Counted from the stretch's first letter, positions 9,934 through 60,560 are shown. The stretch: 64,000 nucleotides of DNA from Candidatus Uhrbacteria bacterium CG10_big_fil_rev_8_21_14_0_10_50_16 (GCA_002774875.1 PCYM01000010.1:8645-72644), one strand, 5' to 3'. Notes: generated by a model from the letters alone, not told the origin. Numbers and translations: made by a program.

Positions 9934-10025
9934 AGCTTCTTTTTTCTTGACAGACTTGGGTTTTGGTGACACTGTTTTATACACAAGGAGGCAATAAGTG
10001 GATACGAATTGTGAACATAACGAAT

Positions 10026-14381: not shown

Positions 14382-14457
14382 TGGTAGGCCCGGCAGGAAT
14401 CGAACCTGCAACCACAGAGGTATAAGCTCTGTGCTCTAACCGTTGAGCTACGGGCCC
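14382..14457 (-). tRNA. tRNA-Ile with anticodon UAU
   Basis: Reverse complement folds as GGGCCCG/CGGGCCT acceptor (Ile-like ends GGGCC...GGCCUACCA), anticodon stem CAGAG/CTCTG, loop CTTATAC, T-arm GCAGGTTCGATTCCTGC, CCA encoded. Confidence 0.7.
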
Positions 14458-31253: not shown

Positions 31254-31254
31254 T

Positions 31255-38337: not shown

Positions 38338-38338
38338 T

Positions 38339-39136
38339 ATGGAGGCAAAGAAATTTTTTGGACAACATTTTTTGCGTGATGACGCCGTGATCGCGGCGAT
38401 TGTTGAGGCCGCAGACGTTGCAGGCCTGCCTGTGTTGGAGGTGGGACCAGGCGAGGGTGTATTGACGGAGGTCCTTGTACAACAAGCTGCCCGTGTGGTG
38501 GCGGTGGATGTGGATACGGAGGCCATTGAGGCAACACGGGCGCGCATTGCAAGCACTAACCTTGAGCTGATTGAGCGCGATGTATTGGATGCACGTTTGG
38601 AAGATGTTCGAACCTTGTTCACAGAAGCGTTTGTTCTTGTTGGAAATCTTCCTTATAACATTACTTCTGATTTGTTACGTTGGATGCTGTCAGTGGGTCA
38701 TAAACCATTACGTGCCGTGATCATGGTACAAAAGGAGGTTGCCGACAGGCTGACGGCAGAGGCGGGCGATATGAGTCTCTTGGGACTTATGGTGCAGCTT
38801 TATGCGTCTGTTCAGCCGGTTGTGCAGGTTCCACGGACGGCGTTTGCGCCACCGCCAAAGGTGGATTCAGCCGTTGTACGATTAGACGTGTATACGCAAG
38901 AGGATCTAGACGCACATGGCGTGCGTAATCCAGAAAAATTGCTCAGTTTTGCCGGTGTCGCCTTCGCGCAAAAGCGGAAACAGCTCAAATCAACGCTTGG
39001 AACGCTGCCATCTATAACAATCAGCGCGCTCGAGGAGGCACTTCGTACACTCAGCCATCCGGCTACCGCGCGTCCACAAGAACTCTCGACCGACGAATGG
39101 ATCCGGCTCTACAATCTTTTGCATGAATATTGCTAA
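38339..39136 (+). CDS. rsmA: 16S rRNA (adenine1518/1519-N6)-dimethyltransferase RsmA/KsgA
   Basis: FGQHFLRD N-terminus and VLEVGPGEGVLT SAM motif. ATG 38339 follows the tsaC stop. Confidence 0.85.
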   Translation: MEAKKFFGQHFLRDDAVIAAIVEAADVAGLPVLEVGPGEGVLTEVLVQQAARVVAVDVDTEAIEATRARIASTNLELIERDVLDARLEDVRTLFTEAFVLVGNLPYNITSDLLRWMLSVGHKPLRAVIMVQKEVADRLTAEAGDMSLLGLMVQLYASVQPVVQVPRTAFAPPPKVDSAVVRLDVYTQEDLDAHGVRNPEKLLSFAGVAFAQKRKQLKSTLGTLPSITISALEEALRTLSHPATARPQELSTDEWIRLYNLLHEYC

Positions 39137-39213
39137 CGCTCCTCAATGCGAGGGGCGTATTATTTTCCACAGGGCAATGTGCGGTGTGCGTGCTATACTT
39201 ATGTGTGAAATCT

Positions 39214-39888
39214 ATGGCAACTCCCTCCTCACAACAACCCAAGAAGGGTTGGGCGGCCTATGCTCTTGAGCAGAAGGTCGGTCTTGTTATTTTTGGTGTG
39301 ACGGGTGTGGTTGGACTTATTTTGAGCATGGTGTTTATTGTGCAGGGAATCCGAGCACCGTTTATTGTGAGTTATTCCGGGGATCGATTTACGACTACGA
39401 GCGAGCGCAACGCGGAGGAAATTCAAAAACAGAAGACCACAGATACAGATGGTGATGGCATTAACGATTACGATGAGTTGAACGTGTTTCGAACAAGCCC
39501 GTACTTGGCGGACTCCGACTCGGATGGCTTTGACGATAATCAAGAGATTAAAAGTGGTAACGACCCTAACTGTCCCGTGGATCAAAACTGCGGTCGCGCG
39601 TCCGATGCGGGTGTCAATAATCCGTTGATCGCCTCCGACCTGACCGATAAGCTTCCGTTTGAAGAATCTGGGTTGAATACGCAGATCAACGACGCGGGTG
39701 ATGTAGAGAACCTGCTGGGTCAACTGACAAATGACGATATTCGTGCGGCACTTTTGCAACAGGGAATCGATCAAACAACCATCGATGCGTTGAGTGACGC
39801 TGAGATTCGCGACCTGTTTAACTCGGCCCTACAAGAATTAGCAGCGAGTGGTGCAATCAATGACATCCTCAAACAAGCAAAACAATGA
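39214..39888 (+). CDS. Membrane-anchored protein with thrombospondin-type-3-like Ca-binding repeats (DTDGDGINDYDE, DSDSDGFDDNQE)
   Basis: One TM helix, then DxDxDG repeats. TGCTATACT -10 box upstream. Stop overlaps the start of the giant gene (CAATGAAA), suggesting translational coupling. Confidence 0.55.
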   Translation: MATPSSQQPKKGWAAYALEQKVGLVIFGVTGVVGLILSMVFIVQGIRAPFIVSYSGDRFTTTSERNAEEIQKQKTTDTDGDGINDYDELNVFRTSPYLADSDSDGFDDNQEIKSGNDPNCPVDQNCGRASDAGVNNPLIASDLTDKLPFEESGLNTQINDAGDVENLLGQLTNDDIRAALLQQGIDQTTIDALSDAEIRDLFNSALQELAASGAINDILKQAKQ

Positions 39889-42800
39889 AACGCGCACGTC
39901 ACATCTTTGAAAAGCTTTTCCTCGGATGGATGATCGGAGTTATGCTTGTAGCCTCTTCGTTTGCGGTTCCTCGCGCTGCGTTGGCGCAAGGATTGCCTGT
40001 TATCGACTCCTCGTTGCTTGGATTTAAGACGAAGGAAGAAATTGAGAAAGCGATTCTTAAACCACTGGGCGTGGCGTTGATTCAAATTCTTATTAACCTG
40101 GTTTCGTTCGTGGCAAACCGATTAGCCTACGACGCAGCGTTGGCGATTGCCTCGGGTGGTAAGGGACAAACGGCAAACTTTGAATATCGGAGTATTGAAG
40201 AATACGGACAAGATTTGTGGCAGTCTGTGTTAGGAGAATCTATTGGTCAGCTTTCCGAAGGGTTAGATATGGCGGGGGTGAATTTTGATGTTTGTGCGCC
40301 AACAAGCCCAATAAAGACATTGAATTTACAACTAGGGATAGCCGGTGGTGCACGACCAGAGCCGACCTGTGACTTTAGGGATATTCAATCCAACTGGGAA
40401 GGATTCGTGGCGACGTTGCAGGAGGATGCCGATCCAAACAGGATTTTTGATGAATTTGCGGCTTCTTTCGGTCAGGGTCAAACGGAATTGTCGGCGACAA
40501 TTAGTATTTTGTCTCAAACATACGCACAGGCGGCTCAGACGCAAGATATAAAAACCAGTGAACTCCTCGCAAACGATCGCTTTAAAGACGTGGAGGATTT
40601 TATTACGGGGAATGTCAAAACACCTTCCACTGTGTTGGAGGATCAGTTTAAGGGGAAGTTAGATGAGGCTCAGAACAATCAGACAGAGGCACTTAAGAGC
40701 GCCTTATTTGGAAACGAGGGAGCTTTGTTGCAAATTGGTGTGTCAGCGGGATCGGTATTCTTAAATACCTTGTTGAGCCAATTGACCAACAAGATTTACA
40801 CAGGATTGTTTGAACCGCCAACTACGGGAGGCGTGTTTAATCCAGACTTTATTAATATTCGTGGACGCGATCGGGCACGAGAGACGTTTAAGGGATTGCT
40901 CACGACGCCTATCCAAACGTTGGATCAGTACAACGTAGTAAACCAATTTGTCACGTGTCCCGGTGCTACAAATCGCGGTCCAAATAACTGTGTCATGGAC
41001 ACAAGTTTTGCGGCGATTATCTCGCGTTCGGAGGCGGGTGAGGGAATGACGATTCAGCAAGCGATTGACGCGGATTTGTTGCACGGTGGATGGCCGTTGG
41101 TCTCTTCTGCGCGAGCGGATTTAGATCAAGACGCATTTTGTTACACACAGGCATACTGTTATTCCAACCTCGTTAAGATGCGTGTCGCCCGTGTTATTCC
41201 GGTGGGTCTTGAGATCGCGGCCGACAAATCAGGGCAAGGAAACTTACCCGTGATTACGCTGCAACAGGCCGTGAACGCCTTTAACGATTGTAATTTTGAA
41301 AATCCCGACGCCTTGTTAGATGCGAATAATCCTTACTGTCACTTGGTGGATCCAAATTGGGTGATTAAGTATCCAGAAACGCAATGTCGCGCGCAAGTGT
41401 TTGGTCAAACATTAGTTGCGGAGAGCGCAAATGTTCGTGCCGAGACCTGTGTAGACACACCAAGTTGTATCTCTGAAGATGAGAATGGAAACTGTGTGGG
41501 TGGATATGGATACTGTACACGTGAGCGAAACGTGTGGCAGTTTGATGGAGATGTGTGTCCATCGCAATATGCAAGTTGTACAACGCTTACGAGTCGTACG
41601 GGTGAGAGAGATAGTTTGCTTACCAACACGGTTGATTTTGCCGGATGTAATGCCGACAATGCTGGTTGTGCATGGTATCGAACAGAACAACAGCGTAACG
41701 ACAACGACACACCCGCAGATCCAACGGATGATATATTTACATGGGGAACAGAAGTGCCAAACGACAATGGAACACCGGGCGATCCAACGGATGATTTTGT
41801 GGACATTACGGACACTAACCCTGCTGCCGCACCGAATGTATCTACAGTTCGAACCTATTTTAACGCGCAGACGCAGGCGTGTCGCGCAGCAGATGCAGGA
41901 TGTACCGATCTCGTACGCGCGTCGTCGTCCACATTAAACCCAGTGCTTAATGCGAGTTTTGAAGATGATGCAGATCAAAACAACGCTCCGGATCATTGGG
42001 ATTTGGGATCAGGATCGCAATATCGTACGTCTGGCTTGGATGCCGCTTTTGGGGGAGACGCTGTGTGGATTCCCGAAGGGGATGCGATTCTTACGCATGA
42101 ATCTGTTCATCTATCCGCAAATCAATTTGTAACCGTATCGTTTCATACACGCGGAGAGGCTTTGTTAAACACGAGTGTAGAATCTTTGTTGACGTTTGTG
42201 AACGCAAGTGGAGTTGGCGTTACACCAACAATCTTGTTGAATTCCCCAAACTGTACGTCGGGCGGAGGATCAGTCTTTTTTGAAGGAACGGCGGGAGATA
42301 CGTATGAACGATTCTCGTGTACGTTTACGACACCTTCTCTTGCGGACACGTGGATGACTATTCGACTCGAGGCAGTAGCAGGGGACGCCTATATTGATGG
42401 GGTGCAGGTGGACGAACAGGAGGTCACAACAAACTTCCATGTCGGGTACGGTTCCTCTTCAGAACGCGTAGATATTCGCGTAGCTCCAGACTATTTGGAA
42501 TGTACGGGTAATGCGACAGACGCAGAGATTTGTAATAATTATGCACCCGTGTGTCGCGCGTCGGAGGTGGGATGTACCGCCTACACACCAACAAACGGAG
42601 ACCCAACGGTGCCTGGAATCGTTAATTCTACTAATACGTGTCCGTCTGAGTGTGTAGGGTATGAGACCTATCGTCAGTTAGCATCTAACTTCTCTACAGC
42701 AGTTTTCCCAACCACCTTTATTGCCGATTCTGCACGGAGCTGTACCGCGGAGGCGGCGGGATGTTCTGAATTTACCAATCTTGACGCACTCGCAGAGGGT

Positions 42801-45800
42801 GGAGAGAGCCGTGAGTATTTTGTTGACGTGCGAGCGTGTCAGGAAGAGGCAGAGGCGGCAAATACGGGCGCGGTATATTACACATGGGAAGGATCCGATG
42901 TATCAGGATTTCAACTCCGTACATGGTCACTTAAACAATCCAATGCAGGAGATGCTCCTTGTACAGACTTTAATGCGGCCTCGGGCACGTGTGTTGATGC
43001 GTCAACGGCGGCCCCTGCGGGATGTAGCCAGCATGCGGATATCTTCCTTGACCCAGATTGTCGCGAGTTTTACGATGCGAGCGGCGACATTCATTATCGC
43101 TACTATTCGGATACCGTCACGGTGGACAACGCGTGTAGCCCTTATCGTAAGACCAACTCAACGCTTAACGATTGTCAGACAACGGGTGGCGTATGGAACG
43201 TCTCGGCGGGAAACTGTACGTATAACATCATGCCATCGGAAAGTACACAGTGTTCTGCAGCGGCAAACGGCTGTCGTGGATACACCGGAAACACCGGAAA
43301 CAATACACGCATCGTGTTACAAGAATATTTTGAGACAGGGAACTTGGGCAATTGGCCAGATGTTTCCGGTACGTCGTTATACAGTAATGAGTCCGTCGCG
43401 GCCGGTGGTCATTCGATGCTCGTTGGCAATGTGGTTGCGGCACAGCAAAGCGAAGGACAGATCTTTGCCGAGCGTGGTTACATCTTGTCTTTCTGGGCAA
43501 AAGGAAGTGGTACATTGCTTGCCAATTTTGTGGGGGCGACTGGTCCAAGCGTAAGTATGGTGCCAGGATTAACGTTGACCAACGGATGGCAGGAATACAC
43601 GTTTGGTCCTGTGACTCCAACGGGTGCCGGATTTGACGAGGCAACTGCGCGTTTAACGTTTGATCTCAACGGAACAGCAGCGTACGTGGATAATATTACA
43701 TTGCGAGAAGTACAAGACACGGCGTACCTCATTGAGAATAGCTGGGTTACTCCGTCCACGTGTGACCAGACGCCACAGGGCGTTGCGGCGCCACAGTTCT
43801 ACCTTGGTTGTCAGGAATACCGCACACATCGCGGAGAGACGGTAGACCTTACCTCATTTGCCTCAATTTGCCGTCAGGAGGCAATTGGTTGTGAAGGATT
43901 CTTTGATACGCAAAACTCTAATAGCCCGTATCCTCAGGCCTTTAATCTTACCTGTAGCGTGGGCGGATCGGTAACGGAGCCAACGCCTTGTTCGTTTGAT
44001 GGTAAGGACGTCTGTACTGTTTTCCCAGGTCAGGCAACGTGTAAGTTTCAGGCAAATGGAGTAGACGCGCCGTTTACGCTCGCGCCGTACTTGGCAGAAG
44101 ACACCGAGGTGGTCCCTCGCGACGAGAAGGTATTCCTCGTTGATCTACCACAGTATCGTTGTAGCGCACAGGCGGCAGGGTGTACGTTGTACGGCAGCCC
44201 AGACTTTAATATCGACAATACAGAAGTAACGGCCTACGCGAGCGTGGCATTGTTGAACGATCCAGACACCTATGGAGACACGTTGTGTGAGCAGGAAGAT
44301 TTATTCTGCGATGCGTATAGCTCGGACGGTGGCGCGCTGTTCTACTTTAAGAATCCTGGAAGTCAGAAATGTGAGTACAAGGAGTTGGTGACGATCGAGG
44401 GAACGGTGTATTCCGGTTGGTTCCGTGTAGGTGGAAGTGAGCCATGTTATTACGACGACCTCAACAATAATGGAGAATTTGATGCAGCAAGTGAGTTATC
44501 AGACAGCTACTTGATTGGCGGAACAGCGTTTGGCATTTGGCACAATGGGGATGCAGCAAACTACGATGGTTGGGCGGGAACTTGTCCTGCTGAGCAGAGT
44601 TCGTGTTCTGAGTTTGTGGATGTTGTGGACGTGGCCGATGGTCTCCATCCAAACGGTCGACCGTATTACTATTTGAACAATGACCGCATTAATCCTGCGG
44701 CAGATTCGGCGTCAGAATCGTGTAATGGCCTTATTTCGCAAGAGCAAGGTTGTGTTGGATTCAATAATAATGCAACACCGTTTGTGACGTTTAATGCGTC
44801 GGCAAGTTACATTAAGAGTTGGCACTCGGATACATTAGTGAATGCCGACAAGCGGTTTACGCCTGTGGATCCGGTGGATTGTAGCTCGGGAACGGGAGGC
44901 ATCTACACACTGCCAGACGGATCGACCATCGATTTGTGTCAAAGCTTCTGTGTGTATCCAACGCAAACAGGGTTTAGTGGCGATCTTCCGCAGTACAACG
45001 TGAGTGTAGAGGGATCGTGCGTGGTGGATCAGGATTGCGGAACGCGGACCGATACATTCGGGGCGGATCAACAAGGTTCTTGTTACAAGGCGTATGAGCC
45101 AAACCCAGATGCGTACCTCTGTTTGGGGGGTGGAGAGCATGGCGAGTTACACCAGAACAGTGGTTCTTGTGTAACAAGTCAGGCATTCTTTGTGCCGGGT
45201 CGTGTGCAGAGTATTTACGGAACTTCGCAACGACAGCCAAATGATGCGAATACTATTTTAAATGTGCGACGTGATCGACAATGTTCGGAATGGTTGGCCT
45301 GCGATAGTCAGACATCTGCGTGGGACGATGAGCAAGGAAAATTTGTGAATGTGTGTAACTCGGTCAGCTTGTGTAACGAGTATTCAGCCGTTGGAAGCCA
45401 GTCATTCTGCTCCAACTGGATTGAGGAGCCAATACGTGTGTTGGACGACGTAGAATACGCAAACCGTGATGTTACCTGGTATGGATCCGAATATTCTGGG
45501 TACTCAATTCCGGATCAGTATGCGGTTCAGGATTACAGTCAGATCAACATTAATCCGGAGAAGCTGTGTCAGAATTCTGTCAGCGGAAAAATCTATAATG
45601 TCTCGGGTGGTGTGACGGTTTATAATTCAGTGAGTGGTCAATGGGATAATGGTGTGCCTGCCTCCTGTGCGTCTACAAATAACTGTCTCGGATTTAGTGC
45701 GGATGCAATTTGTACGAGTGCGGACGAGGATTATCGGCTTGCCGTTACGCTGGGGCCATGTGTTACCGGAACGGCTAATGGAGCAAGTTGTTCTGTTGGT

Positions 45801-48800
45801 CAGTGTACCGATACGCTGCTTGCCTGTGCTTCTAATGCGGATTGCGGTACCGGTCCTGGAGTCTTCTGTAATCTTGCACCAACGGTAGCAGAATCCGGTC
45901 AGTGTTTTAATGGTCTTTGTGCAAGTTCTGTTGATGGAACGGATTTGGTAAACGCCACCAGACAAGAGTGTCGTGGATACCCGGAAAGTAACGCTCCATT
46001 CCCAAATGACATCGTAACAAACTGGACGGCACAGCGGGCGCTTGTTTTGCCAAACGATGGTCCATTAGAAGAACGTCCAACGGCGTTTAGGCCCGGTTTT
46101 GCCAATGCGACCTATTGTGCCAGCGGTGAGGCGTGTGATTGTTCCTATGTCACGGCCGAATACGGTGGAGGGGTGAAGAGTTTAAATTTGGCGAGAGGAA
46201 ATGGTGAAGGTGCGCTTCCGGGGGTCTGTGTTGGGGGAGAATTTGAGGGAAGCTCTTGTACGGGAGATAATCAATGTAGCAACACTTCCGGTGGAGGCGG
46301 AGGTATCTGTGAGTTTATTACCGCAAAGAACACCTTTATTGGGTGGCCGGGATTCTGTATCCAGAGTGATTTGAGCATCAACATTAACGCGAGCCAGGAT
46401 AAAAACGCGTGTTTGCTCTGGTTGCCGGTAGACCAGTTGCGTGGCGGAACAGATATCTATAATAAGTTTACCGAGGCGGGATTCTCTATTGCTAACACTA
46501 CGTACTGCACACAAAACAGCGTGTTTATTGACTTGGGCGTAACGGGTGCGCAGGATACAATTAGCAACGATGACATTAATGACACCATTGCGCCTGCGTG
46601 TGCCGCTTCCTTCCCACCAGATGCCACGGGCGTGCCAACACCTCCTATCGGATTTACGGATCCATTGGGTGCTTGGTTTGTGCAAATGGTGAATGCAACC
46701 GCAAACGGTGTTACAAGAAATGTTCCGGAAAACGCAAGCGGATCCGAGGCTGCGACCGGTGGATGTGACGCAGATGAATATAACTCGTGTTGGGCGAGTG
46801 TGGCGTGTCCAAAAAATTACTTTGCTGTGATTGGAGCCTGCGAGGCAGACGCCAACGTGTGTGGAAACTCGGCAGGGCCAGAAGGTGATGTGTTTGAGGA
46901 TTGTCCGTACTTCTGTGTGCCATATGGCTCAAAGTACGAGCTTCCGGTTGATGCAATCGGTGCGGTACCCGGAGACGTGTGTGCTCCGCCTGCCAACATG
47001 GTTGCCAATGGAATGACGGTGCCCATTAACTCAACGGCATTGGATCTTGGGTTGACGGACGAGGAAGAAATCTTTAGTAGAGCCACCTGGTCCGGAACTT
47101 CTGGCCCTGCATCTGAACAGGGCACAGACACGGCGTTTGGATACTTGGTAAACGACGAGGACTTCCAAGCTCTTGAGGACCGTTATGCAAGCTGCAGAGT
47201 ACGAGGATATGAGTGGAATGCGGACAGTCTTCTAGATAATTATTACGTCCCTTTGTGGCCTGTAGAAAGTTTAATGATCTCTGATCTGGAGCATAACTGG
47301 GAATATTATCTTGGATGCTCGGAGCTCGCCTTTACAAGCGTAGAGGCAGGGTACGGTAATCAGTCAGATACCGTTGGTAACGCGGCCTATACAAACCGTG
47401 CGTTGACGCCAAACCAGAATGTTGCTTGGCAATACACACTCAATGAAGCCGGAATGCCAAGTGCGTTGAGTTACAACAGCGCAACACAGCCGGATGATGT
47501 GGGACGTATTGTGCCAAGTTATGAGTTTACGGATGCGTCGCACATAACAATCAACGATCCAACACAGGCAGACTTTGCCGGTGCCACCGTGTTGGCATGT
47601 AACAACTCAAACCTCTCCCTGGAACCGCTCGCGGAGGGAAGTGCCTGCACCACGCTTACAGGAAACATTACAACGTCTGCCAGAAGTTACGATGATACAA
47701 GTTTCTCTTTGCCGTCTGCCTTAAATGGAGGTGAGTTTGATTGTGATATTGCGACGGATTGTCCAAACTACACAGCGCCAAGCGGAGGGCAGTGTTTAAC
47801 AGGTGTAAATAACTTTGCTTGTTTTGTTGGGTGTGATGAGGGGTCTATGCAAGCAAATGACATTGCAAATGCGTATATTGCAAGTGGATGGAACATAGCA
47901 GGTGCCAACAGTTGGTGTGCTTCGATGGAACTTGGATCCTGTGTGGCAGATATAAATAATTTATCTAATCAATTGGACTATACATGTCAGCGATATTATG
48001 GACATCCATTAAGCTCGATCGTTGGAGAGGCAAACCAAGCAGCTGCTCTTGGAACCTCACAAAATGTCTGTAACTCAGCCTCGGCAAACGGCACCTTCTT
48101 TGATTCGTCGACCTGGATGGCAGCAAACCCAACAGGTGATTGGGAGTCGTTCGTTTTCGCCACAGAACATCAGTGCGATATAAGTGGTGGAGATGCGATG
48201 TGTGATACGGATTCGCAGTGTGGAGGGTCGCCTGGAACGCTGTGTCTTAACAACACCTGTTCAATAGACCTCACATCGATTCCAAACGCGGATATTATTC
48301 CAATTAAAAATCCGGGTTCTACGCCGGCGCAGGTGTTAGGTCGTCTGAAGCAATTCTTTGCACGCGTGTATTCCTTCTGGGAGTATGACGATGAAACAGC
48401 AACGATTGCCCGTTCAACCAATAATGCCGATGCGCCAGTTACGGTTGGAGGAACAGGTGTGTATGAAAAAATTGGACTCGGACCTTTCTCTGCCGCCGAT
48501 CTTGATGATCGGCAAGACGGAGATGCAAACGGCACGGGACCAAACAATGGAACGCCAACATCTCCACAAGTGGCGAGCGTGACGGATAATTGCGTAGGGA
48601 CGAATTGTGTGGAAGGTGAAACGGGAACATTTAGTGTCAACGGTAGCGCGGGACGTATTTGGAACGCGCAACGGAGCTTCTTGGCAAACATTGAGTTCTA
48701 TGCCTTTACTGATCCAAACCAATATCCATTAAAGAATGTGATTGTGGATTGGGGAGATGGGCAGGAGACAGGTTGGGGAGCATCGCTGAGTATTCCAAAT

Positions 48801-49361
48801 TCGCTCGCCAATGTTTGGGGGCGTGGTGATGAGGTGGGGTCTACAACGGATGACAATTATTACAAAGCCCACCGTGGGTTGAACGCGAGCCAACAGCAAA
48901 TTTGTGTGCCTCCATCCGGGGAGGAAGAATGGGGCAAGACGTCCGATAGTTGTCAAAGCGGACCGTTCCAATTCCAACATAATTACCGTTGTACACCGGG
49001 GATGTTTAACTGGCTCCAGGTCGCTGGGCGTGAGTGTCATTATGTAACGGGCACAAACATCTTAGAAAACTCGCCGTGTTATGAGCCGGGTGGGGATGTG
49101 TGTATCTTCCAACCGCGGGTGTACGTAAAAGATAACTGGGATTACTGTACGGGTGTGTGTACGATTGGGCCGAATGGCAATTCTACGTGTCAGGGGTCTG
49201 TATTGTTACCTTTTTCGCCGGTTGATTTAATAGCAGAGTGTAATCAAAATATTTGGCCTCGCACAGAATTAGATGACCCAGGGTATCCAAATGGCAGTTA
49301 TAATAATCCTTGGATCAACTGGGATGGCAACATCCGTATAACACCTACCAATAACTTGTAA
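39885..49361 (+). CDS. Giant secreted cysteine-rich protein (3158 aa): signal peptide, about 330-aa Cys-poor helical N-terminal region, then about 2800 aa rich in C/G/T/S/D/N
   Basis: Single uninterrupted ORF of 9.5 kb. Signal peptide MKRARHIFEKLFLGWMIGVMLVASSFAVPRAALAQG. Very many Cys residues spread over the length, with no obvious tandem repeat. One internal segment resembles a carbohydrate-binding/jelly-roll module. Confidence 0.85.
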   Translation: MKRARHIFEKLFLGWMIGVMLVASSFAVPRAALAQGLPVIDSSLLGFKTKEEIEKAILKPLGVALIQILINLVSFVANRLAYDAALAIASGGKGQTANFEYRSIEEYGQDLWQSVLGESIGQLSEGLDMAGVNFDVCAPTSPIKTLNLQLGIAGGARPEPTCDFRDIQSNWEGFVATLQEDADPNRIFDEFAASFGQGQTELSATISILSQTYAQAAQTQDIKTSELLANDRFKDVEDFITGNVKTPSTVLEDQFKGKLDEAQNNQTEALKSALFGNEGALLQIGVSAGSVFLNTLLSQLTNKIYTGLFEPPTTGGVFNPDFINIRGRDRARETFKGLLTTPIQTLDQYNVVNQFVTCPGATNRGPNNCVMDTSFAAIISRSEAGEGMTIQQAIDADLLHGGWPLVSSARADLDQDAFCYTQAYCYSNLVKMRVARVIPVGLEIAADKSGQGNLPVITLQQAVNAFNDCNFENPDALLDANNPYCHLVDPNWVIKYPETQCRAQVFGQTLVAESANVRAETCVDTPSCISEDENGNCVGGYGYCTRERNVWQFDGDVCPSQYASCTTLTSRTGERDSLLTNTVDFAGCNADNAGCAWYRTEQQRNDNDTPADPTDDIFTWGTEVPNDNGTPGDPTDDFVDITDTNPAAAPNVSTVRTYFNAQTQACRAADAGCTDLVRASSSTLNPVLNASFEDDADQNNAPDHWDLGSGSQYRTSGLDAAFGGDAVWIPEGDAILTHESVHLSANQFVTVSFHTRGEALLNTSVESLLTFVNASGVGVTPTILLNSPNCTSGGGSVFFEGTAGDTYERFSCTFTTPSLADTWMTIRLEAVAGDAYIDGVQVDEQEVTTNFHVGYGSSSERVDIRVAPDYLECTGNATDAEICNNYAPVCRASEVGCTAYTPTNGDPTVPGIVNSTNTCPSECVGYETYRQLASNFSTAVFPTTFIADSARSCTAEAAGCSEFTNLDALAEGGESREYFVDVRACQEEAEAANTGAVYYTWEGSDVSGFQLRTWSLKQSNAGDAPCTDFNAASGTCVDASTAAPAGCSQHADIFLDPDCREFYDASGDIHYRYYSDTVTVDNACSPYRKTNSTLNDCQTTGGVWNVSAGNCTYNIMPSESTQCSAAANGCRGYTGNTGNNTRIVLQEYFETGNLGNWPDVSGTSLYSNESVAAGGHSMLVGNVVAAQQSEGQIFAERGYILSFWAKGSGTLLANFVGATGPSVSMVPGLTLTNGWQEYTFGPVTPTGAGFDEATARLTFDLNGTAAYVDNITLREVQDTAYLIENSWVTPSTCDQTPQGVAAPQFYLGCQEYRTHRGETVDLTSFASICRQEAIGCEGFFDTQNSNSPYPQAFNLTCSVGGSVTEPTPCSFDGKDVCTVFPGQATCKFQANGVDAPFTLAPYLAEDTEVVPRDEKVFLVDLPQYRCSAQAAGCTLYGSPDFNIDNTEVTAYASVALLNDPDTYGDTLCEQEDLFCDAYSSDGGALFYFKNPGSQKCEYKELVTIEGTVYSGWFRVGGSEPCYYDDLNNNGEFDAASELSDSYLIGGTAFGIWHNGDAANYDGWAGTCPAEQSSCSEFVDVVDVADGLHPNGRPYYYLNNDRINPAADSASESCNGLISQEQGCVGFNNNATPFVTFNASASYIKSWHSDTLVNADKRFTPVDPVDCSSGTGGIYTLPDGSTIDLCQSFCVYPTQTGFSGDLPQYNVSVEGSCVVDQDCGTRTDTFGADQQGSCYKAYEPNPDAYLCLGGGEHGELHQNSGSCVTSQAFFVPGRVQSIYGTSQRQPNDANTILNVRRDRQCSEWLACDSQTSAWDDEQGKFVNVCNSVSLCNEYSAVGSQSFCSNWIEEPIRVLDDVEYANRDVTWYGSEYSGYSIPDQYAVQDYSQININPEKLCQNSVSGKIYNVSGGVTVYNSVSGQWDNGVPASCASTNNCLGFSADAICTSADEDYRLAVTLGPCVTGTANGASCSVGQCTDTLLACASNADCGTGPGVFCNLAPTVAESGQCFNGLCASSVDGTDLVNATRQECRGYPESNAPFPNDIVTNWTAQRALVLPNDGPLEERPTAFRPGFANATYCASGEACDCSYVTAEYGGGVKSLNLARGNGEGALPGVCVGGEFEGSSCTGDNQCSNTSGGGGGICEFITAKNTFIGWPGFCIQSDLSININASQDKNACLLWLPVDQLRGGTDIYNKFTEAGFSIANTTYCTQNSVFIDLGVTGAQDTISNDDINDTIAPACAASFPPDATGVPTPPIGFTDPLGAWFVQMVNATANGVTRNVPENASGSEAATGGCDADEYNSCWASVACPKNYFAVIGACEADANVCGNSAGPEGDVFEDCPYFCVPYGSKYELPVDAIGAVPGDVCAPPANMVANGMTVPINSTALDLGLTDEEEIFSRATWSGTSGPASEQGTDTAFGYLVNDEDFQALEDRYASCRVRGYEWNADSLLDNYYVPLWPVESLMISDLEHNWEYYLGCSELAFTSVEAGYGNQSDTVGNAAYTNRALTPNQNVAWQYTLNEAGMPSALSYNSATQPDDVGRIVPSYEFTDASHITINDPTQADFAGATVLACNNSNLSLEPLAEGSACTTLTGNITTSARSYDDTSFSLPSALNGGEFDCDIATDCPNYTAPSGGQCLTGVNNFACFVGCDEGSMQANDIANAYIASGWNIAGANSWCASMELGSCVADINNLSNQLDYTCQRYYGHPLSSIVGEANQAAALGTSQNVCNSASANGTFFDSSTWMAANPTGDWESFVFATEHQCDISGGDAMCDTDSQCGGSPGTLCLNNTCSIDLTSIPNADIIPIKNPGSTPAQVLGRLKQFFARVYSFWEYDDETATIARSTNNADAPVTVGGTGVYEKIGLGPFSAADLDDRQDGDANGTGPNNGTPTSPQVASVTDNCVGTNCVEGETGTFSVNGSAGRIWNAQRSFLANIEFYAFTDPNQYPLKNVIVDWGDGQETGWGASLSIPNSLANVWGRGDEVGSTTDDNYYKAHRGLNASQQQICVPPSGEEEWGKTSDSCQSGPFQFQHNYRCTPGMFNWLQVAGRECHYVTGTNILENSPCYEPGGDVCIFQPRVYVKDNWDYCTGVCTIGPNGNSTCQGSVLLPFSPVDLIAECNQNIWPRTELDDPGYPNGSYNNPWINWDGNIRITPTNNL

Positions 49362-49388
49362 CATAAAAGAGCCGTAAGGCTCTTTTAT
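49362..49388 (+). terminator. Terminator after the giant gene (AAAGAGCC-gtaa-GGCTCTTTT)
   Basis: Perfect hairpin with a T-run immediately after the stop. Confidence 0.55.
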
Positions 49389-49488
49389 CTTTAAGGTAAG
49401 ATTAGAAAAAGGTCTATTTTGCCTAGAAAAAAGGACACCCGCCACGTACAGGAGGTACGGGCGGGGTCGTGAGGGTTGAACGGAGCGA

Positions 49489-50142
49489 TCAGAGGCGATC
49501 GCAGTGGATGTTGAGTTGATCACCGAGATCGTAGGTGATGGCACCTTCGATCTCGGTGTAGCTCTCGTCGAACGTGGCATCGAGGCGTCCCTGCCCATCC
49601 ACGATGGCCACCAATTCGCGGTTGAAGAGCACTCCACCCACCTGGCCGGTGATCTCTTGACCATCTTCGGTCTGAAGAAAGACGGTGCTGTGGGACGGCC
49701 CGAAGGCGCAGTCCCACGCCCATCCGGCGTAGGGGGTGTCGATCGTGGGGACGTTGAGCATCCCTCCGTCCCGAACGCTGAACTCGATGGTCTCCGGCTG
49801 GTTGAACATCTCCGCCCAGCGAGGGTTGTTGTAGGTCACAACCTCCGCCTTGCCGTGGGCTACGGTCACCTCACACGGCGGGCGGGCCCAGGGGGCGTCG
49901 CGGGGATCGATCCCGGGGGGGATGACCTCGATCTCGTACGGACCTCCCTCCTGGAGGGTGACCGTGTGATCCACGGCATGGCCGTCGATCTCGAGGTCGA
50001 ACGCGTCCGGACGGCCGATGTCGACCGTGACCGTGACGTCGCCGCTGATGACCGTGTCGTCGTCGTCCCCGGGGAGCAGGGACGGGTCGCAACCGGTGAA
50101 CAGGACGCTGCCGAGCAGCGCCGCGATGAGCATGGAACGCAT
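49489..50142 (-). CDS. Lipoprotein (lipobox LFTGC) encoded in a about 66% GC island
   Basis: RBS GGAGAA before the internal ATG (MRSMLIAALLGSVLFTGC). The ORF track extends to 50208. Sharp GC jump at about 49430-50210. Confidence 0.5.
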   Translation of the reverse strand: MRSMLIAALLGSVLFTGCDPSLLPGDDDDTVISGDVTVTVDIGRPDAFDLEIDGHAVDHTVTLQEGGPYEIEVIPPGIDPRDAPWARPPCEVTVAHGKAEVVTYNNPRWAEMFNQPETIEFSVRDGGMLNVPTIDTPYAGWAWDCAFGPSHSTVFLQTEDGQEITGQVGGVLFNRELVAIVDGQGRLDATFDESYTEIEGAITYDLGDQLNIHCDRL

Positions 50143-50754
50143 GGCGTTCTCCTTTGCCCCGAAGGGCGGCATTTGCCGCGCTGTAGGGCGCTGCTGTGAG
50201 GGCTGCATCTAACGGATTTATTCCCGCCAGACACTGCTTCCTACCTATAAGCTAGCATATATTTTGAAAATTGTCAATAAAGACCCTCAACAAGGGCTTT
50301 CTCTCTTTAAAATAGCATTGCCGGTTTTACGCCAACGTTAGCCGTGTTTTTGAAAGGGTTCTACACAGGTTATCCACAGGTCAGTGTCGATGGGTGTCGA
50401 CAAAAAAGAGTAGAGAACCCGCCTTACTGGGTTGATCGTAAAAAAGGACGCGTGCAAAACCTGTCGACGTGGATCGACAAAAACACGTCCAATTACCCCC
50501 AGAATCCCCGATTGACGGAACAAAACGACTCTGTTGATATGGACGTGTTGACGCAAACAAACGACAACCCGGTGAAGCAAATCAACCGTTTGAATCACTT
50601 GCTTGTAGGTGTGTTTGCGCGCGACGTGTACGGATCGGGGGGCGTCTTAAGCGCTTGAGGCGCGCAATGTGATCTTTGCCTCTGGGTGGCTCTGGGTTTG
50701 GGGAGGCCTGTAACCGCTCAGGGCGACGGTCACATACCGTTGGAGGGTTTTATC

Positions 50755-51303
50755 ATGATGCAGAGAACAATTTTGTGTGCGGTTTTGGTGCTGTGTTGCC
50801 AGTGTACGGAGACGAATGAGCCTGGGTATGCCTATACGCCCATGTTCACAATTCCATTTAGTCGAGAGGAAACACTCTCCGTGAGTTCGTCTACACCTTG
50901 GCAGATGGAGCTGGAGGCAGATGTAGCCACGGATGTCGTGGCACCGCAACACGGCAAGGTGATTGAGGTTCGGGTGGGTTCTATTACCATTCGTCATTGG
51001 GACGCGAGTGCAGTTCTGGTGGTGGATGACGTGTGGGAGCCTCTGGTGTTGGTGGGTGATCGCCTGTGTGCAGGAGATGTGATCGGTCATTCCCGACGTG
51101 CGCGGGTTCGTGCATTTTGGGATGAGAAGGAGATGACGGATCAGCAAGACATTTCCATGGTTCGTTTGGTGCGAGATCACGTGGTGATCAACGGTTCCGA
51201 TGTGTCTGCAGGGGACAGAGTCTATAGTGCTCTTTCCTTGGCGCAGGACGAACGAGATTCAGATGTCGATCGGGCACGGTGTCCGTATCGAGATGGAGAG
51301 TAA
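50755..51303 (+). CDS. Lipoprotein, possibly a degenerate LytM-like domain, first gene of the T4SS-like module
   Basis: RBS GGAGGG 7 nt before ATG 50755. Signal/lipobox MMQRTILCAVLVLCCQC. A central segment (HGKVIEVRVGSITIRHWDASAVLVVDDV...) loosely resembles an M23 fold without the HxH motif. Confidence 0.45.
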   Translation: MMQRTILCAVLVLCCQCTETNEPGYAYTPMFTIPFSREETLSVSSSTPWQMELEADVATDVVAPQHGKVIEVRVGSITIRHWDASAVLVVDDVWEPLVLVGDRLCAGDVIGHSRRARVRAFWDEKEMTDQQDISMVRLVRDHVVINGSDVSAGDRVYSALSLAQDERDSDVDRARCPYRDGE

Positions 51304-51304
51304 G

Positions 51305-52441
51305 ATGAGAAATCGAGCAATGATGTGTGTAGTGATGGTTCTGACGGCATGCAACTTTGGACCCAGCGACTCGGAGACGGGTGACATGGGTGGTGGTGCG
51401 CCGGTAGTGGATGGTCGTCCCACGTTGCATATGCCGTTTCCAGTTGGGACGGCCTGGCGCTGCACACAGGGCGCCAACGGGTCGTGGTCGCATCGGTACA
51501 ACTCCACACGGTACGACGTGGACTTTGACACGCCCAACCCGCCGAGTCCGGTGACCAAGATCTACGCGCCGGTGGACGGTGTGGCGTACGTGCACAACGA
51601 CCAGACCGGATTCGGTCTGCACGTGAACGTGGATCATGGCGATGGCACCTACAGCGTTCTGGGGCACATGTCGCAGACGTTGGTGGAAGATGACAGTTGG
51701 GTGAGTGCCGGACAGCCCTTGGGTCTGGACGGCTGCACGGGCAACTGCACCGGAGATCATGTCCACCTGGGCGTGCACACGGGTGATGCCTCGCGTCCGG
51801 CGGGCGAAGGATCGTCCATCCCGTTCAACGTGTTTGCGGTGGACAGTAACGTGAGCATTACGCCCACGGCGCACAACACGAGTAACATGGTGTGCGGTCT
51901 CACGCAGGGACACTTCTACGAGAGCCAGTTGCCCGCGTGGTCGGACAACCAGACCGACGACTCGGATGTACCTACACCGCCGGACGAGGAAGACCCGACG
52001 CCATCGGATGCAGGTGACTCCGCGGACGACGATTCGGACGCAGCTGATGACGATTCGGACGCCGTAGACGACCCTGGTTCGCCGGACCCCAACCCGTCTA
52101 CGGGGCTTATTGAGCTCTGCTGGCTGCCCACCGGTCTTGTGAATCCGCACGACGGTGAGCTCTGGGTTTGGGACGGTGGATGGCAGACGGTCAACATGGT
52201 CGCGGGCGGCTTTGTGCAGCTCTGCGGCACGGTGACGGCGGACCCTGGTGACGTGTTGTTGATCAACGGGGAATTTGAGGCGGCCAACGTGCTGTCCAAC
52301 CCCTGGTGGATCTGCAGCAACTGGGGTGCTGCCGGTGGCATGGTGGTGCATGGGACGTTCTTCGTGAACGGCATCGCACTCCCGGCCACGGGTGTGGATA
52401 ACGGTGTCAACGGTTGCAATACGCGACTGATGGTGCCCTAA
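51305..52441 (+). CDS. M23-family (LytM-type) peptidoglycan endopeptidase lipoprotein with acidic linker, the T4SS-associated cell-wall hydrolase
   Basis: Lipobox MRNRAMMCVVMVLTAC. M23 motifs H-x-x-x-D (SHRYNSTRYDVD) and HxH (GDHVHLGVH). D/E/P-rich linker followed by a C-terminal domain. Confidence 0.75.
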   Translation: MRNRAMMCVVMVLTACNFGPSDSETGDMGGGAPVVDGRPTLHMPFPVGTAWRCTQGANGSWSHRYNSTRYDVDFDTPNPPSPVTKIYAPVDGVAYVHNDQTGFGLHVNVDHGDGTYSVLGHMSQTLVEDDSWVSAGQPLGLDGCTGNCTGDHVHLGVHTGDASRPAGEGSSIPFNVFAVDSNVSITPTAHNTSNMVCGLTQGHFYESQLPAWSDNQTDDSDVPTPPDEEDPTPSDAGDSADDDSDAADDDSDAVDDPGSPDPNPSTGLIELCWLPTGLVNPHDGELWVWDGGWQTVNMVAGGFVQLCGTVTADPGDVLLINGEFEAANVLSNPWWICSNWGAAGGMVVHGTFFVNGIALPATGVDNGVNGCNTRLMVP

Positions 52442-52552
52442 CGTAGCACTTGGTACGATCGATTTTGTTCGGTCGTGCCAAGCTTCAATTTGTGGATAGC
52501 CGGCTCACATCTCTTAGCGGTGCGTGCTATACTGGAGCTAATTACAAGGCAC

Positions 52553-55327: not shown

Positions 55328-55329
55328 CT

Positions 55330-57279: not shown

Positions 57280-57344
57280 CTGTTGACAAAAATACGTGCA
57301 CCGTTTCTGTCACGCGTCTTACACTAATCTGTTATACTGTACCC

Positions 57345-57797
57345 ATGGCTGGAGAGTCAGAACAATTCGTGATCCCGCAGTTTATAGATGTGGAAAGCAA
57401 GATTATCGGTCCGATTACGGTCCGACAGTTTACGCTTATCATGGCATCAGGGCTTGTGGGAGCGATTATCTACAAGCTGTTTGATTTTAGCTTGTTTTTA
57501 CTGATTGTTATTCCACAAGCTATCGTAACGCTCCTGTTTGCCTTCGTAAAAATTAACGGTCAAGGATTGCATTATGTGGCGCTGAATTGGATTCAAACAC
57601 TGCGTCGCCCCTCGTTGCGTGTATGGAATAAAAATAGAACAGACGCGGATCTCAAGGCGAAGATTTTTAAAAAGGAACCTCCCCCTCCACCACCGTCATT
57701 CACAAAACCCTCGTTGCATGGATCGCGATTGCGAGACCTATCGCTCGTGGTCAATACGGGTGGCGTATATATTCCTGATGATGAGAAAACAACCTAG
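57345..57797 (+). CDS. PrgI/VirB3-like small membrane protein (2 TM)
   Basis: N-terminus ...FVIPQFIDVESKIIGPITVRQFTLIMASGLVGAIIY then a second TM, the PrgI-family pattern. TGTTATACT -10 box 6 nt before the ATG. Pro-run PPPPPP near the C-terminus. Confidence 0.6.
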   Translation: MAGESEQFVIPQFIDVESKIIGPITVRQFTLIMASGLVGAIIYKLFDFSLFLLIVIPQAIVTLLFAFVKINGQGLHYVALNWIQTLRRPSLRVWNKNRTDADLKAKIFKKEPPPPPPSFTKPSLHGSRLRDLSLVVNTGGVYIPDDEKTT

Positions 57798-57799
57798 GT

Positions 57800-60542: not shown

Positions 60543-60560
60543 TCGACGCACATAATTTGT

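Follow-up and report, generated by a model that had tools for sequence, protein, structure and literature searches.

A putative surface-protein cassette of ABY1-type Patescibacteria: two overlapping genes for a giant cysteine-rich protein and a small membrane partner

Two overlapping genes of a Candidatus Uhrbacteria genome belong, on sequence grounds, to a cassette that is conserved among Patescibacteria of ABY1 type (Uhrbacteria, Magasanikbacteria, Falkowbacteria). The first encodes a small membrane protein (the partner) and the second a giant Cys-rich protein (the giant). The preferred reading, to which a probability of about 0.6 is given as a whole, is that of a host- or glycan-binding surface protein anchored by its partner. 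The giant most likely helps the cell to bind its host, a role that is putative. The window, i.e., the whole stretch of DNA analysed, is 64,000 nucleotides long, and all coordinates refer to it.

The giant gene (39885..49361, plus strand) is a single uninterrupted ORF with an ATG start and encodes 3158 residues. The protein contains 132 Cys (4.2%), is enriched in Gly, Thr, Ser, Asn and Asp and has a net charge of −241. The partner gene (39214..39888, plus strand, 224 aa) starts with the ATG at 39214 and ends with the stop codon at 39886-39888, and its end overlaps the start of the giant gene by 4 nt (ATGA, 39885-39888); the closest relative has the identical overlap. The earlier note had described both the 9.5 kb Cys-rich ORF and this overlap, and both descriptions hold. 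Upstream lies a housekeeping gene, KsgA (38303-39136, Pfam RrnaAD 1.2e-50), followed by a terminator-like hairpin (39136..39158, plus strand, 9-bp stem with 6 GC pairs, T-rich tail) that marks the two genes as a transcription unit of their own. Directly 3' of the giant stop codon is a strong hairpin resembling an intrinsic terminator (49363..49388, plus strand, 11-bp stem, GUAA loop, U-rich tail; dG −15.2 kcal/mol, z −4.4). Comparison with the closest relative indicates purifying selection on the giant (overall pN/pS 0.09). A pseudogene reading was dropped on account of this value and of the intact gene; intact orthologues occur in more than 1000 clusters.

The giant family comprises at least 199 homologue matches, all of about 3000-3700 aa, and 1243 clusters at 50% identity. 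These share the same architecture of roughly 3000 aa, with the N-domain always N-terminal. The named members all belong to Patescibacteria (Uhrbacteria, Magasanikbacteria, Falkowbacteria) and every one is annotated as «hypothetical». The cassette is present in 146 species-representative genomes, the family is confined to part of Patescibacteria, and there is one copy per locus. No description of the family was found in the literature. The best reading is an uncharacterised family of a known kind. Giant host-attachment surface proteins of other CPR/Patescibacteria are among the closest known systems: those of Vampirococcus lugosii and Strigamonas methylophilicida are also Sec-targeted envelope proteins of 1.4-4.2 kaa (PMC8080830, PMC13059738). 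Their domains are of adhesion type (PKD, FnIII, lectin-like), the organisms are ultra-small episymbionts, and a part in recognising the host has been proposed for these proteins. They differ in that they belong to another class (Absconditicoccaceae), are not reported as Cys-rich and have no detected homology to the present giant; moreover, no conserved two-gene cassette or T4SS neighbourhood is described for them.

The segments distinguished in the giant are given below with residues and plus-strand coordinates. Residues 1-34 (39885..39986) are a Sec-type signal peptide with a K/R-rich n-region, a hydrophobic core and a cleavage site between ALA and QG. A34 reaches a conservation of at least 90%, within a family consensus AxAQ; the clean signal peptide announced by the earlier note is thereby confirmed as a family trait. 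The giant itself lacks both a membrane anchor and a sortase anchor: no LPxTG is found anywhere and there is no C-terminal TM segment. Residues 35-345 (39987..40919) are a Cys-poor helical domain, conserved in the family, with a conserved helix (RLAYDAAxxIASGGxGQ). The region had been called Cys-free over about 330 aa; it is Cys-poor over roughly 340 residues and contains the conserved pair C137 and C162, found in 118 of 121 sequences. AF2 builds long helices here, with pLDDT <50, and the domain profile has no match among PDB sequences. Residues 55-80 form a moderately hydrophobic helix (mean hydropathy 1.69), which could be membrane-embedded and would then complicate the topology of the giant. 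A likeness of the mature N-terminus (GLPVIDSS...) to those of VirB5/TrbJ is conceivable but is not claimed.

The most conserved domain (residues 346-600, 40920..41684) is Cys-rich and alpha/beta, with at least 16 invariant Cys and a pLDDT of 72-88 for residues 350-500; its profile has no significant match in PDB. It is followed by an acidic D/N/T/P-rich linker (residues 601-680, 41685..41924) of low conservation (occupancy 0.5, pLDDT <50). Residues 681-860 (41925..42464) are modelled as a CBM4/9-type jelly roll (AF2 pLDDT 82-92). The model superposes in Foldseek on solved PDB structures of CBM4-2, CBM16, CBM22 and CBM61 (E 6.6e-8, TM(target) 0.65-0.75; 4bj0_A among the matches). The predicted jelly roll is thus that of the PF02018 clan (CBM4, CBM9, CBM16, CBM22, CBM61), but identity is only 12-19%, Pfam matches of the giant to the clan are below threshold and no glycoside-hydrolase domain is attached. 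Pfam gives no PF02018 match for residues 681-860 of the giant itself; a precomputed PF02018 assignment exists in about half of its homologues. A second, CBM_4_9-like module (residues 1141-1290, 43305..43754) has a weak Pfam match at residues ~1143-1209 (16.4 bits, E 0.012), the best in the giant and below the gathering score of 25.9 bits; its signature FE..W...SNES..GGHSL...FWAKG is conserved.

These two modules alternate with two Cys-hairpin scaffold modules, A (residues 861-1140, 42465..43304), which carries C-x6-C-x2-[FY] motifs, and B (residues 1291-1650, 43755..44834), which appears as a cryptic duplicate of A. Comparison of residues 860-1140 with 1291-1650 by hhalign (probability 90%, E 1.6e-6, 123 columns) shows that A is homologous to the start of B; the profile of B has no match in PDB. 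The absence of tandem repeats stated by the earlier note is correct for the DNA (TRF) and for self-BLAST, but it overlooks the recurrent hairpin motif and the cryptic duplication. Further on are a conserved Cys-rich domain (residues 1801-2210, 45285..46514; AF2 pLDDT 65-83 for residues ~2029-2250; no PDB match), a variable region (residues 2211-2860, 46515..48464) and a conserved C-terminal domain (residues 2861-3158, 48465..49358). The latter consists of a putative PKD-like beta-sandwich and a Cys-rich beta region. The sandwich carries a VDWGDG motif, to be compared with the PKD signature WxxGDG; when the C-terminal model was compared with PDB by Foldseek, no match had an E below 0.1. The view that no motif can be assigned is therefore superseded, since two CBM_4_9-like modules and one putative PKD-like module are recognised.

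For about 80% of the giant no relative can be detected in Pfam, NCBIfam or PDB, thus it probably contains new disulfide-stabilised folds. Pfam, applied to the whole protein and to ten overlapping 450-aa segments, returned the weak CBM_4_9 match alone. Searches of NCBIfam, PHROGs and PADLOC gave nothing, and neither phmmer of the whole protein nor six domain profiles gave a significant match among PDB sequences. A match to PIT54/SRCR (E 5e-4) was rejected as a Cys-composition bias, no stretch passing alone. The two AF2 models were built with 26 homologues only, which probably lowered their confidence: about 45% of both has pLDDT <50.

The large part without an assignable fold leaves room for a secreted enzyme or toxin directed against the host envelope, i.e., a hidden glycan-degrading or lytic domain with the CBMs for targeting. 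As a rule, modules of the CBM4/9, CBM16 and CBM22 types occur together with glycoside hydrolases, and an M23 peptidase gene is close by. However, no catalytic family and no homology to a characterised enzyme are detected by Pfam, NCBIfam, PHROGs, PADLOC, PDB sequence profiles or fold searches. The near-invariant positions are mainly Cys, Gly and aromatic residues, and no immunity-like gene is present. Moreover, the variable part lies inside the protein and does not form a toxin tip at the C-terminus: unlike in the polymorphic toxin/Rhs type, residues 2211-2860 are followed by a conserved C-terminal domain, Pfam gives no Rhs/YD match, and the gene downstream encodes a variable, non-conserved lipoprotein. 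An enzyme or toxin is very improbable.

Of the 132 Cys of the giant, 93 show a conservation of at least 80% in the family alignment, and many of these are present in 121 of 121 sequences; the number of Cys is even in 80% of the members and the giant contains no CxxC motif. Taken together, these three properties point to structural disulfides formed outside the cell. Most Cys are in short C-x6/7-C hairpins, and the C-x6-C-x2-[FY] motif occurs 8 times (0.6 expected). A cytoplasmic metal-binding protein was rejected on account of the absence of CxxC, the even Cys counts and the extracellular folds. A DsbA-like thiol-disulfide oxidoreductase is encoded at 5329..6132 (minus strand; Thioredoxin_4 4.5e-20, DSBA 2.2e-17), which would give the genome the capacity for extracytoplasmic disulfide formation. 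The earlier note was right about this DsbA-like thioredoxin, but the gene is 34 kb away and is not a member of the giant locus.

The partner is predicted to have its N-terminus inside, a single N-terminal TM anchor (residues ~22-45) and a helical C-terminal part, and one Cys is conserved. It contains two putative Ca-binding loops of TSP3 type, DTDGDGINDYDE and DSDSDGFDDNQE, whose Asp and Gly positions do not vary among six orthologues. The match to Pfam TSP3_bac (PF18884) reaches 20.8 bits (E 3.4e-4) for a threshold of 25 bits. The NCBIfam models of Myxococcus MtsD and CglD, proteins of cell-cell cohesion and adhesion complexes, match the loops well below their cut-offs. The partner carries two DxDxDGxxDxxE loops and no more; it is a short, anchored protein, and the sub-threshold matches cover the loops only. 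In 71 of 71 species loci a homologue of the partner immediately precedes the giant, and the pairing of the giant with a Ca-binding membrane protein, already suggested by the earlier note, is borne out.

The preferred reading can be described as follows: (i) Sec would export the giant, and oxidation beyond the membrane would turn it into a multidomain protein that is rigid, very acidic and stapled by disulfides; (ii) the translationally coupled partner would hold it at the cell surface; (iii) as a type II membrane protein, the partner would bind the Cys-poor N-domain of the giant through its external Ca2+-binding TSP3 loops and its helical tail, an interaction that is pure inference; (iv) the CBM modules and the variable region would bind glycans or other structures of the host envelope and so determine host specificity; (v) recombination would shuffle the distal part of the giant between lineages. 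The secreted, disulfide-rich, adhesin-like protein proposed by the earlier note agrees with the AxA site, the Cys pattern, the predicted CBM4/9-type and PKD-like folds and the faster-evolving, recombining regions of putative binding function. In CPR, giant surface proteins have been accepted as candidates for attachment to the host (PMC8080830, PMC13059738), and T4SS as well as polysaccharide-binding envelope proteins are essential for the epibiotic growth of a Saccharibacterium (PMC10633639). Giant repetitive adhesins of Gram-negative bacteria such as LapA, SiiE and MpIBP (RTX/BIg) are likewise multi-kiloresidue, very acidic, Ca2+-associated surface proteins with ligand-binding modules near the distal end. 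They consist of Ig-like repeats in tandem and contain practically no Cys, and T1SS exports them by means of an RTX signal at the C-terminus. The giant, in contrast, has a Sec signal, 132 Cys and no tandem repeats, the Ca-binding loops being on its partner; no GGxGxD repeats and no RTX Pfam match are found in it.

The variable region is 0 to 1143 aa long across the family and includes a hypervariable patch (residues 2639-2772). According to their Pfam content some homologues carry PKD or Big_9 Ig-like domains, plausibly located in this region. Evolution is faster in the CBM modules and in the variable region than in the scaffold; among pairs with scaffold identity >80%, identity of the variable region ranges from 27% to 92%. 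Comparison with the gene of the closest relative reveals a recombination tract (45700..49200, plus strand) with 93-100% identity against a background of 70-81%, broken by a divergent patch at about 47,800-48,200. The synonymous difference pS is 0.075 in this 3' tract vs. 0.74. The 3' 40% of the giant gene is a recombination mosaic. It is detectable at synonymous sites only, and a family-wide search at the protein level found no pair in which the variable region is more similar than the scaffold.

These data also bear on the idea of a general structural protein of the envelope (surface layer or wall scaffold), for which host recognition and T4SS would be irrelevant, whose CBMs would bind the peptidoglycan or glycans of the cell itself and whose neighbourhood would be no more than conserved backbone. 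The CBM-like modules could have the wall of their own cell as ligand. The single copy per locus, a scaffold highly conserved over about 2500 residues, the strong purifying selection and a position equally conserved among the housekeeping genes GroEL, RF, Sua5 and KsgA are in line with this idea. Nevertheless, a variable recombining distal region and fast CBMs are more typical of proteins with changing partners. S-layer proteins are usually Cys-poor, and 4.2% Cys argues against such a role; a family present in part of Patescibacteria only is not a universal element of the envelope. A structural scaffold is considered unlikely.

Downstream of the giant is a T4SS-like (MPF_FATA-type) module (52475..61813, plus strand), whose component order is shared by many loci and which is of a type described for class ABY1 (PMC12102498). 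It encodes, on the plus strand, a 950-aa polytopic membrane protein with about 6 TM segments (52475-55327), a 649-aa cytoplasmic protein (55330-57279), PrgI/VirB3 (57345-57797), a TrsD-like protein (57800-58495), the VirB4 ATPase (58485-60542), a 188-aa anchored protein (60561-61127) and a ComF-like PRTase (61118-61813). The 950-aa protein is «VirB6-like» by topology and position only, no VirB6/TrbL Pfam match being found among 19 orthologues. The giant does not qualify as a VirB6/TrbL protein (the giant extended VirB6 proteins of Rickettsiales included) either: against at least 5 TM helices it has a signal peptide and one moderately hydrophobic helix only. An M23 peptidase lipoprotein precedes the module (51200..52441, plus strand, Pfam Peptidase_M23 2.1e-15; true start probably near 51300) and is a candidate VirB1-like wall hydrolase of it (PMC12102498).

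The giant had been placed immediately upstream of this module. It is near, but the statement is loose: in the window its distance is 1.8 kb to the M23 peptidase gene and 3.1 kb to the first core membrane gene, and its terminator and a probable convergent lipoprotein gene (49489..50208, minus strand, 239 aa, lipobox LFTGC) are located in this interval. A minus-strand terminator (49452-49438) is close to the latter. The minus-strand ORF was considered as a third conserved component and rejected; a lipobox occurs in several loci, without real sequence conservation. The interval between giant and module varies even in the closest relative.

Across genomes the module is at most 10 kb downstream of the giant in 28 of 38 species loci (74%) and adjacent to it in 18 (47%); in the reverse direction, the giant is at most 10 kb upstream in 20 of 33 metagenome T4SS loci. 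However, in 66 of 80 loci KsgA precedes the giant, its synteny being conserved to the same degree as that of the module, and SerRS, protein kinase and other housekeeping genes separate giant and module in some genomes. The proximity may be only the conserved synteny of the chromosomal backbone. As KsgA is equally syntenic and as the terminator and about 3 kb lie between, the functional link is putative. The host-interaction locus with a secretion module proposed by the earlier note keeps its statistical proximity but is not operonic here.

It is nevertheless conceivable, though distinctly the lesser option, that the giant is a dedicated extracellular component of the T4SS-like machine (docking stalk, channel extension or mating-pair adhesin), co-regulated with and attached to the translocon and replacing PrgB-type adhesins. 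The order partner, giant, polytopic protein, 649-aa protein, PrgI, TrsD, VirB4, with gaps of 0.2-2.5 kb, is that of the 18 adjacent species loci, including the complete genome CP129476.1 (L082), and the 20 metagenome loci point the same way. KsgA is near virB4 across Patescibacteria classes (PMC12102498), thus it looks as if in this lineage the cassette had been inserted beside the T4SS cluster, at its border. PrgB homologues and PrgB-type adhesins were not found in Patescibacteria, and no other adhesin is known for these T4SS systems (PMC12102498). PrgB (Antigen I/II, pCF10), a surface adhesin with a lectin-like binding domain encoded together with an MPF_FATA-type conjugative T4SS of Gram-positive bacteria, would be a functional analogue. 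In comparison, the giant has no LPxTG and no similarity to it in sequence, Pfam or NCBIfam, is 2.4 times longer and disulfide-rich, and would be anchored via a separate membrane protein. Against such a component stand (i) the lack of a shared operon here (strong terminator, convergent ORF, variable insert of 2-3 kb); (ii) up to about 12 kb of intervening housekeeping genes elsewhere; (iii) one locus (L005) without a module in the 10 kb flank downstream of the giant; (iv) the far wider spread of T4SS than of the giant family in Patescibacteria. Moreover, the giant has a Sec signal and hence is not a T4SS substrate; an effector was rejected on this ground.

A more specific and slightly more doubtful version supposes that the ABY1 T4SS-like machine has an extracellular part, missing so far, in the small Ca-binding anchor together with the giant. 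The two would make up a rigid, partner-anchored stalk for docking. Its distal cassette (residues ~1940-3105), which can be exchanged, would select the host, and the stalk would position the VirB4-driven translocon for transfer across the host envelope. Pili or PrgB-type adhesins would thereby be replaced by something not homologous to them, and recombination of the tip would reprogram host range. The partner-anchored binding protein preferred here may for its part dock the cell so that the T4SS-like machine can act at the contact site, a step suggested by the usual location of the cassette just upstream of the T4SS-like cluster and the weakest of the proposed mechanism.

Patescibacteria represent a large share of bacterial diversity. 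To our knowledge, all those cultivated so far live on other microbes, and we know of no test of host recognition and holding outside Saccharibacteria. The cassette is a concrete and widespread candidate for recognising and holding the host (>1200 clusters, 146 species-representative genomes), and it belongs to the ABY1 lineages, where the most recent T4SS survey explicitly reported no adhesin. The recombination mosaic of its distal 40% suggests a testable mechanism of host-range change, and may be used as a marker linking epibiont lineages to their hosts in metagenomes.

The giant gene is a single intact ORF (39885..49361, + strand, ATG start, 3158 codons), as had been described earlier, and its product is indeed rich in Cys (132 residues, i.e., 4.2%), with high contents of Gly, Thr, Ser, Asn and Asp. 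Lys is used only 47 times and the net charge is −241. The stop codon of the preceding gene (ATG at 39214, TGA at 39886-39888) overlaps the start of the giant gene within an ATGA, which was also read correctly from the sequence; the same 4-nt overlap is found in the closest relative. Upstream, the KsgA gene is closed by a terminator-like hairpin (39136-39158), and the stop codon of the giant gene is followed by a strong hairpin (49363-49388) with an 11-bp stem, a GUAA loop and a U-rich tail (dG −15.2 kcal/mol, z −4.4 vs. shuffles). From these flanking hairpins and the ATGA overlap, the genes of the giant and of its membrane partner look like a separate bicistronic unit.

In the partner (224 aa) a K-rich N-terminus leads into a single TM helix (predicted N-in, C-out); two putative TSP3-type Ca-binding loops, one conserved Cys and a helical C-terminal region are also present. 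Its match to TSP3_bac is sub-threshold (20.8 bits), and the loops match the Myxococcus cohesion/adhesion models MtsD and CglD far below the cut-offs. A partner homologue is localized directly upstream of the giant in 71/71 species loci, i.e., all those with enough upstream sequence to judge, and the pairing is kept where the wider neighbourhood has changed (e.g., locus L005 of another genome). The small gene and the giant gene are therefore a conserved unit.

A word-indexed search retrieved at least 199 homologues of the giant, nearly all of 2600-3900 aa and all annotated «hypothetical protein»; the names among them are Candidatus Uhrbacteria, Magasanikbacteria, Falkowbacteria and Patescibacteria group. 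The exhaustive phmmer search with residues 1-600 gave 1243 clusters at 50% identity for E <= 1e-3 and 885 for E <= 1e-30; in the matched clusters the N-domain is always N-terminal and protein length is similar. When one genome per species was scanned, a relative was found in 146 species-representative genomes. Residues about 50-2200 and about 2860-3150 are conserved, while residues 2211-2860 vary across the family in sequence and in length (0 to 1143 aa). It must be noted that the giant locus also occurs in MAGs titled «uncultured Gammaproteobacteria», «Kapaibacterium», «Udaeobacter» or «Binatia» (loci L008, L012, L020, L023, L024, L031, L069, L076 and others). These are probably mislabelled or contaminated bins, since their flanks keep the Patescibacteria-type order RF-Sua5-KsgA-small-giant.

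The most conserved feature of the family is its cysteines: 93 of the 132 are kept in at least 80% of 121 sequences, dozens of them in 121/121, and the Cys count is even in 80% of the members. The commonest spacings are C-x6-C and C-x5-C. The motif C-x6-C-x2-[FYW] is observed 8 times (0.6 expected) and C-x5-G-C-x2-[FYW] 6 times (0.06 expected), values reached by 0/2000 shuffles in both cases; no CxxC is present in the giant. The conservation of the pattern, the even counts, the hairpin spacings and the lack of CxxC point to extracytoplasmic structural disulfide hairpins and argue against metal clusters, which were rejected. The N-terminal region, thought to be free of Cys, is instead Cys-poor, with C137 and C162 conserved. 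As for repeats, none in tandem was found, in line with the earlier note; dispersed motifs and a cryptic duplication do exist.

The domain anatomy can be described as follows. A signal peptide (residues 1-34, with an AxA|Q site conserved in the family) precedes an N-domain (residues 35-345) predicted to form long helices (pLDDT < 50), whose profile has no match in the PDB. The N-domain holds a conserved, moderately hydrophobic helix (residues 55-90, RLAYDAAxxIASGGxGQ), whose charged residues speak, tentatively, against a TM segment. The best-conserved Cys-rich domain follows (residues 346-600; pLDDT 72-88 for residues 350-500; no PDB match), and an acidic linker leads to a predicted jelly roll (residues 681-860, pLDDT 82-92) resembling CBM4-2, CBM16, CBM22 and CBM61 (Foldseek, E 6.6e-8, TM 0.65-0.75). 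A second CBM-like module (residues 1141-1290) shares the signature and matches PF02018 weakly (E 0.012), a precomputed match to this family being found in about half of the orthologues. After each CBM-like module comes a Cys-hairpin scaffold (residues 861-1140 and 1291-1650), and the two are homologous at their starts (hhalign probability 90%, E 1.6e-6); the core of the giant thus goes back to the ancient duplication of a unit made of CBM plus scaffold. A further conserved Cys-rich block (residues 1801-2210) is modelled with moderate confidence. Neither LPxTG nor a C-terminal anchor was found. The statement that no motif could be assigned thus no longer holds, CBM-type and, tentatively, PKD-like domains being now assignable. 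Known superfamilies cover only the CBM-type fold and, tentatively, the PKD-like fold: profiles of the six conserved blocks found no sequence relative in the PDB, and the folds are largely novel. That the giant is a hidden enzyme or toxin is most improbable; Pfam, NCBIfam, PHROGs and PADLOC gave no catalytic or other assignment.

The giant gene was compared with that of the closest relative (contig of P0001, the giant protein of that relative). Nucleotide identity is 70-81% over the 24-kb syntenic region and rises to 93-100% at positions about 45,700-47,800 and 48,200-49,200. Correspondingly, pS is 0.74 for codons 1-1935 vs. 0.075 for codons 1940-2638 and 2773-3105; codons 2639-2772 are divergent again (pS 0.50, pN 0.16), as are the last 53 codons (pS 0.62). 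The tract starts inside the conserved block of residues 1801-2210, and the high identity runs out at about 49,200, some 160 nt short of the stop codon. The mosaic is sharp in the comparison of the tract 45,700-49,200 (codons about 1940-3105) with the loci L168 and L169. Such a pattern points to a recent exchange of the distal 40% between genomes that are otherwise well diverged, and to a nested replacement, within it, of the hypervariable core. A chimeric assembly is a possible alternative source of the mosaic; two independent assemblies of the relative gave an identical result. The pN/pS ratio stays at 0.12-0.32 throughout, a sign of purifying selection: the giant gene is intact, conserved and constrained. 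Among family pairs whose scaffold is more than 80% identical, identity in the variable region ranges from 27% to 92%, and divergence is faster in the CBM modules than in the scaffold. A receptor-binding protein would be expected to combine, in this way, a rigid conserved scaffold with distal modules that change fast and can be exchanged.

The window is ordinary chromosomal DNA from a Patescibacteria (CPR) genome and has genes for RNase J, UvrA, tRNA synthetases, NusA, YidC, a Wzy-like ligase, GroEL, a release factor, an epimerase, Sua5 and KsgA, and eight tRNA genes. Bacteria usually decode AUA via a modified CAU anticodon, and a genomic UAU tRNA-Ile is uncommon; ARAGORN calls a tRNA-Ile with anticodon TAT at 14382-14457 (−). 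Four ORFs have no Pfam family: 9963-11825 (+, 620 aa), 15594-16739 (+, 381 aa), 27930-28820 (−, 296 aa) and 31219-32211 (+, 330 aa).

Downstream of the giant comes first a convergent gene on the − strand (49489-50208), probably for a lipoprotein, which has a terminator of its own (49452-49438); about 1 kb of uncertain ORFs and an M23 peptidase lipoprotein gene follow. The interval 49,400-51,300 has a GC content of 0.565 vs. about 0.50 and overlapping ORFs on both strands, and its gene content differs in the closest relative (ORFs of 56, 160 and 182 aa, at 88% giant-protein identity); it looks like an insertion hot-spot. In relatives, mobile or selfish elements are frequent immediately after the giant (L003 19523-20110, L007 19463-19843, L006 22386-25597), i.e., Y1 transposase, GIY-YIG nuclease, HicAB and HepT/MNT toxin-antitoxin pairs, which fits a variable insertion site behind the terminator of the giant.

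The T4SS-like module is thus near the giant and not immediately downstream as first proposed. It begins with a 950-aa protein (52475-55327; signal sequence, about six TM helices, no Cys) and a 649-aa cytoplasmic protein (55330-57279), followed by PrgI/VirB3, a TrsD-like protein, the VirB4 ATPase, a 188-aa anchored protein and a ComF-like PRTase. The first two have no Pfam, NCBIfam or PADLOC match in the window or in 19 orthologues; they precede PrgI-TrsD-VirB4 in the same order in dozens of loci and are uncharacterised core components of the module. The cluster is of the MPF_FATA-like type described for Patescibacteria, which is linked to ksgA and also, in class ABY1, to comF; that survey detected no PrgB-type adhesins and does not mention the giant gene (PMC12102498).

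In 38 species-representative loci the sequence extends at least 9 kb past the giant, and 28 of these (74%) encode a homologue of the 950-aa protein within 10 kb downstream. In 18 (47%) the distance from the giant to the start of this homologue is less than 2.5 kb, and it is followed by the 649-aa protein, PrgI, TrsD, VirB4, the 188-aa protein and ComF (e.g., L082, complete genome CP129476.1). Uhrbacteria-type loci, the window included, carry variable inserts of 2-7 kb, mostly with an M23 peptidase gene. Conversely, the giant is present upstream in 20 of 33 metagenome loci (61%) retrieved with the 950-aa family and having at least 8 kb upstream. Of the 13 negatives, most have kinase-SerRS-M23 upstream, an arrangement which also stands downstream of the giant in L003 and L007; the giant then probably lies about 12 kb away, just past the 10 kb covered. 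The association is both frequent and deep, the orthologues being only about 30% identical. However, KsgA, a housekeeping gene, is equally syntenic (66/80 loci), essential unrelated genes can intervene, a terminator and a convergent gene separate the giant from the module in the window, and the interval differs between genomes. A functional tie to the T4SS, though plausible, is thus treated as a hypothesis, and a dedicated T4SS role for the giant is rather doubtful.

The paired conserved Cys, the CBM-type and (tentatively) PKD-like folds and the obligate neighbouring Ca-loop membrane protein fit a surface, host-binding protein, a reading to which we give a probability of roughly 0.6. The giant, which bears a Sec signal, would be exported by Sec and oxidised extracellularly; the DsbA-like gene cited by the earlier note (5329-6132, − strand) is real but lies 34 kb from the giant locus. 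The membrane-anchored partner would hold the giant on the cell through the helical N-domain, and a disulfide-stapled stalk would project, its CBM modules and variable distal region binding host envelope structures. The same scaffold could belong to a purely structural envelope protein, which is unlikely. As a surface, host-binding protein, the giant would contribute to host attachment and specificity, possibly placing the T4SS-like machine.

In CPR predators and epibionts, giant surface proteins that are targeted by Sec and bear adhesion domains are an accepted theme (PMC8080830, PMC13059738), and a Saccharibacterium cannot grow epibiotically without its T4SS and several envelope proteins that bind polysaccharides (PMC10633639). 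The giant is predicted to act like the CPR giant surface adhesins, and like PrgB only if it serves the T4SS. It was placed outside the PrgB, RTX/BIg, VirB6 and polymorphic-toxin families because defining features of each were looked for and not found. No description of the giant family or of the partner-giant cassette was found in the literature. The family is real, well conserved and uncharacterised, and consists of predicted disulfide-rich surface proteins with an obligate partner. It joins the known theme of giant episymbiont surface/adhesin proteins, to which it adds largely novel folds and a recombination mosaic.
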